Position numbers and translations under genes: made by a program
The notes under the pieces: generated by a model
Databases searched by the model: none
What the model was told of the DNA's origin: nothing
The model's input: the letters and a program-made list of their open reading frames with translations, nothing else
In this document: in pieces, positions 55,777 through 59,998 of the stretch
How the letters are laid out: each line of letters starts with the position of its first letter
How positions within the stretch are numbered: the stretch's first letter is position 1
NCBI GenBank assembly: GCA_038851325.1
Contig: JAWCKZ010000002.1
Location: forward strand, 71,888-135,887
Length of the DNA: 64,000 nucleotides
Source: Candidatus Bilamarchaeaceae archaeon
GTDB lineage: Archaea > Micrarchaeota > Micrarchaeia > Anstonellales > Bilamarchaeaceae
Direction of reading: 5' to 3'

Positions 55777-56856
55777 CTAATCGATTACTCCCTTTCCCTC
55801 ATATAACATCCTTAGCATTTTTGTAGTCTTTTTGTATACTTTTGAAAATCTTATCCTTACTCTGTTTCTCTCTTTTCTTTTGAATATGACCTTAACCTCG
55901 ACCTCTTTTCCGATATGTGCGCGAATTCTATCAAAGATGCTTTCATCACTCACTACTATTTCAAATTCCTCTTCTACATCTCTTCCCTCAGAGACATCCT
56001 TTATCGCTCTACTAAGCCCAGAATAAAAGGCATTCCCAAGCAGTTCAGCGTGTTTCCTTTGCTCGAGTTTGAATTCATTAATAAAATATGCTGAGCGAAG
56101 AATCCTTTGGTAGAAAAAGCCACCGGGCATGTCAAAGAATGTGTATGCGCATTTCTCGATATCCTCTACATCAGCGAATGGGGTTACGAACTTTACTACA
56201 TCTGTCCTATCAGCGCTCTTTATCACGATTCCCTCTCTCTTTCCTCTATTCAGGTTCTCTGCTATTTTTTTTACGATGGCTATCTGACTTTTATCAAAGC
56301 GACCAAGCAATGAAGCCGGTTTTAATCCAAACTTCTTTAAGATAGAATACTTTTGAAGAGGTGGCAGATATCCATTTCCGTTATCCACATCGAATATAAA
56401 AAGCGCAATATCAAACTTCTCTGTTGGTGGAGTGTAAGGCGTATTTCCTATCATCTCTGCGCAGAGCACATAGTCCGGGTATGTCTCAAAAAAAGCGCAG
56501 ATAGTCGGCATCTCTCTAACCTTTTCTGTTGCAAAGGGATCGAGATATCCTCCTCTTGTAAAGGCGAAAGGCTTTCCAGATACCGATGCTATTCTCAGAT
56601 TATATCCATCTATCTTTTCTTCGACATAAAAAATATTAGACCGTATATTTCTGGTTATTCCTGTCTCAAGCCTAAATATTCTTTTTATGTGCGGGTATCC
56701 CCATATGATTGCCCCACGGGTTATTACCGTACCTCGTTCTATTCCTTTGTGTGGCTTTGCAAATCTTATATATTCTATTTCTTCATTACGTTTCTCTGCT
56801 CGTCCACGCGCTATAGCCTTTTCAACTTCCTCCTTTTTTATTTCACCACGGAACAT
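55777..56856 (-). CDS. ATP-dependent RNA ligase (archaeal Rnl3/Pab1020 family)
   Basis: GYPHIKRI, EEKIDGYNLR, TRGGYLDPF, FIFD, REGIVIK. Confidence 0.9.
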   Translation of the reverse strand: MFRGEIKKEEVEKAIARGRAEKRNEEIEYIRFAKPHKGIERGTVITRGAIIWGYPHIKRIFRLETGITRNIRSNIFYVEEKIDGYNLRIASVSGKPFAFTRGGYLDPFATEKVREMPTICAFFETYPDYVLCAEMIGNTPYTPPTEKFDIALFIFDVDNGNGYLPPLQKYSILKKFGLKPASLLGRFDKSQIAIVKKIAENLNRGKREGIVIKSADRTDVVKFVTPFADVEDIEKCAYTFFDMPGGFFYQRILRSAYFINEFKLEQRKHAELLGNAFYSGLSRAIKDVSEGRDVEEEFEIVVSDESIFDRIRAHIGKEVEVKVIFKRKERNRVRIRFSKVYKKTTKMLRMLYEGKGVID

Positions 56857-58325: not shown

Positions 58326-59222
58326 CTAACTCTTTAAAGTGTAGGCCATGAGAGGAGCAAATGCCATAGAAAGAAGACCGATGTAGAACGCCACGTATAA
58401 GCCTACTACCAGACCGATTATTACTATAATCGGTGAAAATACGGTTATTATTGCCTGTGGCATGTCGATGCCATGTGCGAGCCTGATTGCCTTATACTGC
58501 AGGTATAAACAGTAGAAGCCTATCAGCGTTCTTATCGGCCCTGCGATTATGTTAAGGCAGGGGACAAACCCCAGGAAGACGAACGGGATCCCCGCGGCAG
58601 TTGCGGATGCAGATGCAAGTGCTATCAGGTATGCATGCGCTCTGAAATCCGCTTTTCCGCCAAGCAGTTTCGCAACCACGTACTGCACTCCAGAAACAAA
58701 GAGCCACGATATTATTGGGAGTGCGAAGTACAGGACAAGTCCTATGATAATTGCAACTATACTCATTGCTATTAGTATTGGGAGCCCAAGCCCCTTCGTT
58801 GCCATGGTGAGAAGAATGGTGAGCGGCAGCGTCATGAGCCAGAAGTATGCCAGGATTATCAGAATCACGATAAATTCGAGCAGCAGCGGGATAAGGGCAG
58901 CAACAAAAACATCCTTCGCGCCCCTCTTCACACTTTTGTTTTTTATTTCCTCGGCAAGCGTCTTTGTCGGATGGAAGAAGACCTCTTTCCAAATTTTCAG
59001 TCGATCATACCCGATAGACGCTACGATTCTGTCAGCATATTCTTCAAGCTGGTCCTGGAAGTTTTTCTCTTTCTTAACTTCACCAGGATCAGCACTTTCA
59101 TGCGTACTTTCGTGCGTCTCCAGTTTGCTCTCCTCGTGCATAGTTTTTTTCTCGTTAGCAATATTCCCCTTCTCAATATTTATTCTCCTTGGCATATTAA
59201 TCATCTTCTTTAAGCGATTCAA
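58326..59222 (-). CDS. Yip1 family membrane protein
   Basis: VFFHPTKT, AKLLGGKADF, AIRLAHG; about five TMs; start uncertain. Confidence 0.8.
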   Translation of the reverse strand: MNRLKKMINMPRRINIEKGNIANEKKTMHEESKLETHESTHESADPGEVKKEKNFQDQLEEYADRIVASIGYDRLKIWKEVFFHPTKTLAEEIKNKSVKRGAKDVFVAALIPLLLEFIVILIILAYFWLMTLPLTILLTMATKGLGLPILIAMSIVAIIIGLVLYFALPIISWLFVSGVQYVVAKLLGGKADFRAHAYLIALASASATAAGIPFVFLGFVPCLNIIAGPIRTLIGFYCLYLQYKAIRLAHGIDMPQAIITVFSPIIVIIGLVVGLYVAFYIGLLSMAFAPLMAYTLKS

Positions 59223-59241
59223 AATCGCTCAGGTCTAAAAA

Positions 59242-59502
59242 TGGACTCGGAGGGATTTGAACCCCCGGCCTCCCGCGCTCTTTCAAGCCACGAGGATTTT
59301 CTCACGGCTTTTTCCAAACGGTATTTAGCTCCTGAGACAATCCTCAGGTCATAAGCACCTGCTTAGGAGCCAAATACCGTTTCCAGGGTTTTTGCCATCG
59401 GAACGACCGACGACAAAAAGCCTTGCAAGGCGGACGCTCTACCACTGCTTACCCCGAGCAAGCAAATCATAAGCTTGCTCAGGAGCTCTGAGCTACGAGC
59501 CC
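59242..59502 (-). tRNA. tRNA-Ala(UGC) with two introns (15/16, 43 nt; 37/38, 146 nt)
   Basis: Spliced: GGGCUCG UA GCUC AGUGGUA GAGC G UCCGC CUUGCAC GCGGG AGGCC GGGGG UUCAAAU CCCUC CGAGUCC A. G3-U70 pair and A73. Introns 59445-59487 and 59278-59423. Confidence 0.9.
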
Positions 59503-59723
59503 TTCGAATCTCTGCGTTAAATTAAACAAGTTTAATATTTTAACATTTTTCACTTTACTTTTCAGCTTAGCCTTAAATCCAAGACTCTTCTTCAAAGAAA
59601 TTTTTGATTTAACCAAGGCCTCCTTAAGGTGCATTCTCTTATTCTCAGTCTGCTGGGTCGGTATACCCCTGGCCTCATTTTTGCTGATTTCTCTCATGGA
59701 CCCCCTCTTCTATTTTTACTACC

Positions 59724-59773: not shown

Positions 59774-59998
59774 TCACGAAGGGGAAATGAAAGTTACTGA
59801 ATCTCCTCTTAAAAGGATGGTCCCTATGCCTCTCTTCACTTCTCCTTTCTCTATTTGCTCTGCCTTCTCAAGGACAATGTTCATGTGGACATCGTAAGCT
59901 ACCATCACTCCTCTGAATTCATATCCTCCTTTCATTCCAACGATTACTGTGTTATTCAGGGCGTTGTTCAAGATATCAAATGGTCTTTTTTCTGGCAT
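59774..59998 (-). CDS. Sm-like archaeal protein (SmAP/Lsm)
   Basis: RPFDIL, FRGVMVAYDVHMNIVL, LLRGDSV. Confidence 0.95.
   Translation of the reverse strand: MPEKRPFDILNNALNNTVIVGMKGGYEFRGVMVAYDVHMNIVLEKAEQIEKGEVKRGIGTILLRGDSVTFISPS

Follow-up and report, generated by a model that had tools for sequence, protein, structure and literature searches.

Several previously described systems frame the intron examined here, a 146-nt element in the tRNA-Ala(UGC) gene of a Candidatus Bilamarchaeaceae archaeon (Candidatus Micrarchaeota), which lies in a 64,000-nt stretch of contig JAWCKZ010000002.1, assembly GCA_038851325.1 (the whole stretch is hereafter termed the window). In Euryarchaeota, tRNA-Trp carries an intron of more than 100 nt at position 37/38 that harbors a box C/D guide RNA and is structured after excision. 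ARMAN-2, a member of the same phylum as the source organism, reportedly possesses a three-unit splicing endonuclease of the epsilon2 type, whose structure has been solved. In the account given in PMC3239211, tRNA genes of ARMAN-1 and ARMAN-2 (Candidatus Micrarchaeum acidiphilum) are disrupted, the introns of ARMAN-2 occupy canonical as well as non-canonical positions, among them the T-loop site 59/60, and the two ARMAN-2 introns named there are 13 and 25 nt long. Finally, families of transposed tRNA introns have been described in the Thermoproteales (Fujishima, Sugahara, Tomita, Kanai 2010, as summarized in PMC4033280 and bioRxiv 10.64898/2026.10.13.758758), and this pattern is read, in these summaries, as intron gain by transposition.

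The intron described here resembles the Thermoproteales introns, as these are summarized, in that related sequences occupy different tRNA isotypes and positions, appear bound by a bulge-helix-bulge constraint and belong to a lineage with an endonuclease tolerant of relaxed motifs, a tolerance that is predicted here. It differs from them, again as summarized, in its phylum (Micrarchaeota, within the DPANN archaea) and its enzyme (epsilon2 rather than (alpha-beta)2), in belonging to a single family whose core of ~55 nt is recognizable across 15 of the 23 sampled genera, in having 5S, 16S and 23S rRNA genes among its hosts, in its covarying helices of pseudoknot topology, and in the secondary insertion and tandem arrays of units found inside the intron. 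With the ARMAN-2 system, it shares the phylum and tRNA introns at both kinds of position; the conserved family, structured core, rRNA hosts and long composite introns set it apart from ARMAN-2 as described in PMC3239211. Three hallmarks of transposing families are evident: related introns lie in different isotypes within one genome, at different positions of the host RNAs, and are present or absent at orthologous sites. Our reading, to which we assign a probability of about 80%, is that this element is an archaeal protein-spliced intron of the bulge-helix-bulge type, in its relaxed form, at position 37/38 and that it belongs to an apparently mobile family of structured introns.

The host gene is composed of the following parts, all on the minus strand.

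59242..59502, minus strand: tRNA-Ala(UGC) gene of 261 nt, counted with its discriminator base and made up of three exons and two introns (from in-silico splicing and intron-less orthologues)
59488..59502, minus strand: exon 1, from the acceptor 5' strand to the start of the D-loop (from orthologues and in-silico splicing)
59445..59487, minus strand: intron 1, 43 nt, in the D-loop, with an 11-bp hairpin (absent in orthologues; hairpin from the minimum free energy (MFE) fold)
59424..59444, minus strand: exon 2, from the 3' part of the D-loop to A37 (from orthologues and in-silico splicing)
59278..59423, minus strand: intron 2, 146 nt, at the canonical position 37/38 (exon matches abut in G005 and G003; relaxed splice motif)

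Comparison of this gene by BLAST with the genomes of five congeneric species recovered an orthologous tRNA-Ala(UGC) gene in three of them (G005, G003 and G001), and in all three the gene is uninterrupted, lacking both introns. In two of these, G005 and G003, the matches to the two exons are contiguous, meeting at query positions 137 and 284, equivalent to window positions 59424 and 59277, and the ends of intron 2 are thereby fixed to the base; C38 is the same in two of the three intron-less orthologues and is T in G003. Excision in silico of 59278-59423 together with 59445-59487 yields a 72-nt tRNA-Ala(tgc) cloverleaf with the G3-U70 identity pair, as recognized by ARAGORN. The 146-nt intron is real and its ends are exact to the base, as the first-pass annotation, working from the letters of the window, had placed it. 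The source genome (0.9 Mb, 91% complete, from hot-spring metagenomes) holds one tRNA-Ala(UGC) candidate, its remaining Ala genes being GGC and CGC. A contig of 6364 nt from an independent public DNA run (X2) covers 58900-59543 with both introns and six differences, so the arrangement is not an assembly artefact. Four DNA runs yielded neither an allele free of the intron nor a joint across it, a result drawn from contigs, which are silent on rare variants.

Standard searches overlook the gene. Within the 64-kb window, neither default ARAGORN nor Rfam at its gathering thresholds returns a match, and the tRNA model scores just 20.1 bits on the 3' half of the gene, because the two introns interrupt it. 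The same holds genome-wide: 24 of the 28 tRNA genes that could be delimited are interrupted, which accounts for the low ARAGORN count of just seven tRNA genes called with default settings.

The wider occurrence of the intron is best described with names for its modules, where A denotes the first 44 nt, C a 63-nt stem module, and B the part that contains hairpin 3. Within the source genome, core and insertion recur at 93-95% identity in the long introns of tRNA-His(GUG), tRNA-Val(GAC) and tRNA-Ser(GCU), all at position 37/38; across the Ala, His, Val and Ser copies, 38-43 of 44 core positions and 60-62 of 63 insertion positions are identical. The architectures vary, reading A-C-B in Ala, (A-B)x2-A-C-B' in Val, A-B-A-C-tail in Ser and A-C-(B/A hybrid)-B-A in His, with a repeat unit period of 74 nt. 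More diverged copies lie in four further tRNA genes (assigned from their flanks), at one non-coding site and in 23S rRNA. With a covariance model built from 47 copies, whose core corresponds to the first ~55 nt, all 15 plus-strand matches at E < 0.01 in the source genome fall in tRNA genes or 23S rRNA.

Beyond the source genome, a BLAST search with the first 44 nt detected the element in 12 of 36 further genomes belonging to the same taxonomic family, and the 24 genomes that represented other families of the order gave no match (0 of 24). The covariance model reaches further, to 56 of 99 family genomes distributed over 15 of 23 genera, and a single genome has between 0 and 16 matches; 43 of the 99 genomes, including three of the six congeners, have no match. 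An exact-pattern scan of species genomes returned 46 loci, of which 42 carry titles of Micrarchaeota, Micrarchaeia, Bilamarchaeaceae or simply 'archaeon', two carry other archaeal labels (Candidatus ainarchaeum and Euryarchaeota) and two, both with the longest gap that the pattern allowed, are bacterial. Host sites were read from the flanks of 45 distinct copies outside the source genome: 27 lie in the anticodon loop, 7 in the D-loop, 8 in the T-loop, one each in 16S and 5S rRNA (both rRNA hosts confirmed by Rfam), and one (L043) is unassigned. A search for parts of the intron in other tRNA introns and genomes has thus traced the core to tRNA, 5S, 16S and 23S genes. The conserved part of the family begins at the splice site with A or G followed by GGCTTTTTG, the start of the core lying at the 5' splice site or one base away from it; in the T-loop copies, as we read the splice-motif scan, the register is one base off and the A before GGC is exonic.

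This distribution is that of an apparently mobile intron family with a wide presence within a single taxonomic family of Candidatus Micrarchaeota. The suggestion in the first-pass annotation of a miniature mobile element is borne out to the extent that the core occupies four tRNA genes here, recurs in 56 of 99 family genomes at several kinds of host site, and does not occur in the orthologue of three congeners. Intron 2 is therefore present or absent within one genus. The direction of this change is unpolarized, in that the congeners may have lost the intron just as the source genome may have gained it; loss stays in play because in other genera two loci (L030 and L047) carry a family intron at the same tRNA-Ala(UGC) site.

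A number of individual copies deserve separate mention. One family copy (L042) lies within the 5S rRNA gene of another Micrarchaeota metagenome-assembled genome (MAG), where the match spans 191 nt compared with a 120-position model; our literature search found no report of 5S rRNA introns in DPANN archaea. Another (L019) is situated in a 16S rRNA gene directly after GGATTAGATA, likewise in another Micrarchaeota MAG. Rfam returned no host identity at E <= 0.001 for L043, L018 and L122. At L043:241-320, a 60-nt family copy sits in a non-coding stretch with perfect 19-nt direct repeats on both sides, the one case that looks like insertion at the DNA level with target duplication. Within the source genome (G000; coordinates as contig and position), the diverged 23S rRNA copy lies at G000:C13:7349-7404 (-), and a related non-coding copy at G000:C1:33127-33181 (+) is located just downstream of a tRNA gene and has no Rfam identity; these two have in common a stretch of ~70 nt that follows the copy. 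A weaker covariance-model match (E 0.06) falls at a non-coding site. The tRNA-Val(GAC) gene at G000:C1:120099-120480 (+), the sole GAC gene found, contains three tandem core units, and the 5' strand of its anticodon stem has a possible second partner in a GTAAC that immediately precedes the true 3' stem strand. The D-loop is interrupted at one and the same site in two further Val tRNA genes, at G000:C3:56101-56215 (-) and G000:C10:3732-3819 (+); one of the introns is a family copy shortened to ~42 nt and the other a 15-nt intron with the ends only, a pattern suggesting that short introns in this genome may arise from family elements by deletion.

Folded in isolation, intron 2 adopts exactly the three hairpins that had been noticed at first sight. 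Its MFE is -67.8 kcal/mol, compared with -37.9 +/- 3.8 for 200 dinucleotide shuffles (z = -7.9; 0 of 200 as stable), and the fold of the whole pre-tRNA gives z = -6.8. Comparative analysis of the family points to two helices, S1 and H2, which are arranged with the remaining structural features as follows.

59415..59423, minus strand: 5' strand of helix S1 (AGGCTTTTT), from the first intron base; pairs with 59385-59393 (covariation)
59385..59393, minus strand: 3' strand of helix S1 (AAAAACCCT), which is the 5' half of the invariant loop (covariation)
59394..59414, minus strand: variable inner part of hairpin 1; its 3' strand, 59394-59401, doubles as the 5' strand of H2
59301..59308, minus strand: 3' strand of helix H2 (GCCGTGAG), bases that also contribute to the 5' strand of hairpin 3; pairs with 59394-59401
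59285..59310, minus strand: hairpin 3, 10 bp (in the MFE fold)
59278..59284, minus strand: site-specific 3' tail; AAAG at 59280-59283 stands opposite C32-G35 of exon 2, with 3 of 4 pairs

Two alignments underlie the comparison, a MAFFT alignment of 47 cores (A1) and a second alignment of 95 matches, 80 of them distinct. On the former, hairpin 1 taken whole shows little covariation (0.069 vs 0.055 in shuffles, a value reached by 19 of 500), and its inner pairs form in just 14-34 of the 47 family members; of this hairpin, then, the base is conserved and covarying and the inner pairs are often broken. The outer pairs of S1 covary in the 95-match alignment (AU 61, GC 6 and GU 5 at one; GC 68, AU 4 and GU 3 at another), a C-C mismatch is preserved in 75 of 76 sequences, and the diverged copies of the source genome alter both strands of the outer part of S1 together (AGCC/GGCT, AAAC/GTTT, AACC/GGTT). 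H2, a helix that is not in the first-pass annotation, joins the bases directly 5' of CAAAAA to those directly 3' of AAAAAG, closing the invariant loop AAAAACCCTGGAAAAA, and its second pair is GC in 45 and CG in 22 members. Its covariation on the MAFFT alignment is 0.239 vs 0.142 (0 of 500 shuffles reach it), in the same direction as on the fitted alignment, and a permutation test on 58 copies also supports it (0 of 2000). For the model that combines S1 and H2 on the 95-match alignment, paired cells amount to 82.5% vs 77.5% in shuffles (0 of 500 reach this), double-change cells number 76 vs 34.4 (0 of 500), and covariation is 0.168 vs 0.090 (0 of 500), with slid partners giving at most 0.072. 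For hairpin 3, covariation went undetected (448 of 2000 permutations reach its value) in a best-of-many-windows test of low power. A closing helix GGCTTTTT/AAAAAGCC, which had been proposed as a competitor of hairpins 1 and 3, has both of its strands in the sequence but no covariation, and was rejected; it is 94% paired across the family, shows no case of a double change, and in 17 of 47 members does not form its third pair.

In H-type pseudoknots, for example those of viral frameshifting, an A-rich loop lies in the minor groove of stem 1. The order of elements here, with S1 followed by H2 without a linker and the second A-tract leading back, is that of an H-type pseudoknot, and each of its two helices has covariation support. 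Like such pseudoknots, the proposed structure would comprise a stem 1, a stem 2 without intervening linker and a third, A-rich loop that returns along stem 1, itself T/A-rich. Unlike the frameshifting examples, the topology is deduced from covariation. The T-tract and two A-tracts mostly shift in length jointly (5/5/5, 4/4/4, 3/3/3), with 6/5/6 and 5/4/5 as exceptions. Loss of the final A of tract 1 and a G at the start of tract 2 occur in the same four sequences and in no others, a lead that common descent could also explain. Formed together, S1 and H2 would build an H-type pseudoknot; folds that alternate between the two helices would explain the data equally well. Two other readings of the sequence were discarded. 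Hammerhead-like and K-turn interpretations of CTGATGG/GAAA lack the needed stems, and the motif is not kept in the source-genome copies (CTGAGGG). A short peptide starting from ATGGCAAAAACC would lack its ATG in most source-genome copies, and a period of 74 nt is not divisible by 3.

With respect to splicing, 16 distinct family copies possess the full canonical motif, with all four central pairs and at least five outer pairs; in these, four bases of the tail are paired with the last four exon bases ahead of the 5' site, and a 3-nt bulge follows. The Ala copy, of length 146, has three of four central pairs and five outer pairs, the latter being the 5-bp anticodon stem, and its AG together with C38 makes a 3-nt bulge adjoining that stem. 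The source genome encodes a 391-aa endonuclease with two PF01974 matches and a full-length match to PDB 4fz2 (E 4.5e-130), as well as RtcB (559 bits). The PDB entry is labelled 'tRNA intron endonuclease', and we take it to be the epsilon2 enzyme of ARMAN-2; to judge from the protein sequence, the endonuclease of the source genome is of the epsilon2 type and predicted to be capable of acting on relaxed motifs. If 4fz2 is indeed that enzyme, the 391-aa protein has its counterpart in the three-unit endonuclease of ~390 aa from ARMAN-2, a type that cuts strict and relaxed motifs in vitro according to PMC3239211.

The 18-bp stem at the center of the intron proves to be a secondary insertion, and its parts are listed below.

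59317..59379, minus strand: module C, a 63-nt insertion that, with the flanking AAA and the following T, forms the 18-bp stem with a branched top
59380..59385, minus strand: first copy of TGGAAA, the duplicated loop sequence
59311..59316, minus strand: second copy of TGGAAA, running into the second A-tract

Module C has inverted-repeat arms and is placed in the A-rich loop of the core with TGGAAA on both sides. All four copies (4/4) in the source genome occupy the same core position and are 95-98% alike. The helices of the core can still form in its presence because the duplication leaves a complete GGAAAAAG adjoining H2. A BLAST search with 75 nt gave no match at E < 0.05 in the 98 other family genomes, only chance matches of 14-23 nt, and a scan of metagenome contigs for exact 21-mers found nothing. 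Of the properties expected of a miniature inverted-repeat transposable element (MITE), the terminal inverted repeats and the TGGAAA duplication are present, and multiple unrelated contexts are not. The differences between copies of module C are not compensatory. Against the other three copies, the Ala core is identical at 38-39 of 44 positions and the Ala insertion at 61-62 of 63, which hints at recombination among copies or at a separate arrival of the insertion.

The idea that the 146 nt might be nested introns holds in part, in that the 18-bp stem is indeed a 63-nt insertion nested within the core, but no bulge-helix-bulge of its own was found: none could be identified by hand, and the splice-motif scan at the junctions of the 74-nt units gave off-register matches only. 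Module C is thus not established as a separately spliced intron. A resemblance between module C and intron 1, which have GCTCCT and GCTTATGA in common, was dropped as probably due to chance. Intron 1 itself, which the first-pass annotation leaves unmentioned, has no further copy in the genome; its end placement is ambiguous by up to 3 nt, with CAG at both junctions, and a canonical bulge-helix-bulge could not be fitted to it in either orientation, so that its ends are those given by the orthologues.

These observations can be accommodated in the following scheme. The element would consist of a conserved 5' core of ~55 nt and a short, variable 3' tail that is complementary to the local exon, and in members with the canonical motif the tail would supply the 4-bp central helix and the 3-nt bulge. 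The first nine bases of the intron (AGGC plus T5) would pair with A5 plus CCCT to form S1, H2 would close the invariant loop, and both helices at once would constitute the pseudoknot, the second A-tract running along S1. Such a self-contained fold would present an intron-side helix beside the 5' splice site wherever the element lands, with only the tail having to match the host. The epsilon2-type endonuclease would then cut both sites, and RtcB would join the exons and probably circularize the intron. In the source genome, the core appears to have gained the 63-nt inverted-repeat insertion in its A-rich loop with the 6-nt duplication, core units would have been duplicated in tandem, and the composite is now seen in four tRNA genes.

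Several considerations weigh against this interpretation. The splice motif of the Ala copy is relaxed, with a G-A mismatch in the central helix; if S1 is formed to its first pair, two free bases are left in the 5' 'bulge', and the opposite strand is broken by hairpin 3. In the tRNA-Val copy, the motif scan shows no recognizable splice motif at the 3' end. One base belongs to both S1 and H2, and hairpin 3 as well as the inner stem of hairpin 1 are competitors of H2; covariation does not distinguish between helices that coexist and helices that alternate. As regards the alignments, 35 of the 47 rows of A1 come from the exact-pattern scan, which forces the motifs to be invariant, and the second alignment was fitted to H2, though not to S1; the shuffle counts overstate independence, moreover, because the family members are related. 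The case for mobility is wholly one of distribution. A single recent jump of the whole composite would not account for an Ala core that is more diverged than its insertion. Finally, a search of the 91%-complete genome found no reverse transcriptase (PF00078) and no Y1 transposase (PF01797), other transposase families not having been searched.

A stronger version of this scheme, which we put forward tentatively and as a possibility well short of even odds, casts the core as a portable splice-site module: a compact pseudoknot, perhaps with its A-tract in base triples, that the epsilon2 endonuclease could cut in any loop of a structured RNA, and that possibly spreads by reverse splicing of the circular form.

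How the element moves bears directly on the first of the alternatives, namely that it is a MITE-like DNA transposon that is retained only at sites where splicing of the host RNA can remove it, its core being the recognition structure of a transposase or recombinase rather than an RNA fold. Module C, with its inverted-repeat arms and 6-nt TGGAAA direct repeat, does resemble a DNA insertion, the L043 copy lies in a non-coding stretch between its 19-nt direct repeats, and the lack of a detected reverse transcriptase leaves an RNA route without that enzyme. We nevertheless regard this alternative as unlikely. No target duplication accompanies the intron itself, and the 15 plus-strand matches at E < 0.01 all lie in tRNA genes or 23S rRNA. 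A conserved part that begins at the 5' splice site or one base from it, together with a tail that is complementary to the exon, accords with an element fitted to splicing, and the G-U pairs among the covarying pairs point to a structure that acts as RNA, not DNA. Nor was a Y1 transposase found, subject to the limit on transposase families given above.

A second alternative holds that the intron, once excised, persists as a stable and probably circular non-coding RNA that serves the cell as a guide, a decoy or a protein-binding RNA, and that this function conserves the core. Excised archaeal introns are known to circularize, the fold is very stable, and the T5 tract and the loop AAAAACCCTGGAAAAA are conserved across genera beyond what base-pairing needs. 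The parallel with the guide-bearing tRNA-Trp intron extends to length (>100 nt), to position 37/38 and to the structured RNA that would form after excision. The intron has no C box (RTGATGA), a single CTGA and no paired C/D motifs, and Rfam returns no match to small nucleolar or C/D families at E <= 5, only chance-level matches to microRNA and tmRNA; the guide-RNA analogy advanced in the first-pass annotation accordingly fails, and the Rfam scan it had pointed to gives no family match at gathering score in the window and no credible match at E <= 5. The RNA must be dispensable, because 43 of 99 family genomes, among them three of six congeners, have no covariance-model match. Its copy number of 0 to 16 per genome is like that of a selfish element, and the changes between copies of module C are, as noted, not compensatory. 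A conserved cellular function is in our estimation distinctly unlikely. Least credible by far is that the gene is a decayed pseudogene or a repeat mis-assembly whose 'intron' is junk that is never removed, for although standard tools do not call the gene, short-read contigs break inside the intron in three of four DNA runs and the central helix of the splice motif contains its mismatch, this is the only tRNA-Ala(UGC) candidate in the assembly, its exons are intact and yield a perfect cloverleaf with the alanine identity pair, one independent contig covers the entire gene, and with 24 of 28 tRNA genes interrupted, introns are the rule here.

Returning to the apparently mobile, protein-spliced intron as the reading that we prefer, its genomic neighborhood includes two genes that had been brought into connection with it.

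55777-56856: RNA ligase with a Pab1020-type C-terminal domain
59774-59998: LSM gene

Both the RNA ligase and the Sm-type gene noted earlier near the intron are real, but a functional link of either to the intron is not supported. Lipid genes lie between the RNA ligase and tRNA-Ala, and in each intron-less orthologue the LSM gene immediately upstream of tRNA-Ala encodes a protein with 93-97% identity to the LSM protein of the window; adjacency to LSM gives no link to the intron because it is the same in congeners without it. At 59543-59558, the contig of a near-identical strain in run X2 has 241 other letters in place of 14 bases between the LSM gene and the tRNA. Elsewhere, at G000:C6:35994-36133 (+), D- and T-loop introns contain a second type of intron hairpin, palindromes of the form N-CTTTTT-GG-AAAAAG-N, which also occurs in other Micrarchaeota and has the T5/A5 theme in common with the intron family studied here. 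A T-loop pattern scan also brought up a CRISPR-like array with repeats of ~31 nt at a contig end (G000:C17:1-180).

A literature search, with subscription journals and supplements outside its coverage, found no description of such an intron family in Micrarchaeota. In comparison with the Thermoproteales and ARMAN-2 descriptions, what differs is a single family with a conserved, covarying core that extends over many genera, the use of all three rRNAs as hosts, and the composite growth of the intron through nested insertion and tandem units. There is also a consequence for annotation, in that a default finder misses most interrupted tRNA genes, as the seven ARAGORN calls in the source genome illustrate.

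The route by which archaeal tRNA introns reach new sites has yet to be established; a preprint on Asgard archaea, in the account it gives of three tested routes of intron gain, arrives at no general route (bioRxiv 10.64898/2026.10.13.758758). The locus described here provides a concrete system for this question, with a short and recognizable core, many recent copies, empty orthologous sites in sister species, and an endonuclease of known type, a relative of which has been purified and assayed according to PMC3239211. The intron is of good interest because it is a defined substrate for testing the spread of archaeal introns. If the core does act as a portable splice-site module, one element could colonize the D, anticodon and T loops of tRNAs as well as all three rRNAs; it would be the first archaeal protein-spliced intron with a conserved structure of its own for spread, and would offer a defined substrate for learning how archaeal introns are gained.

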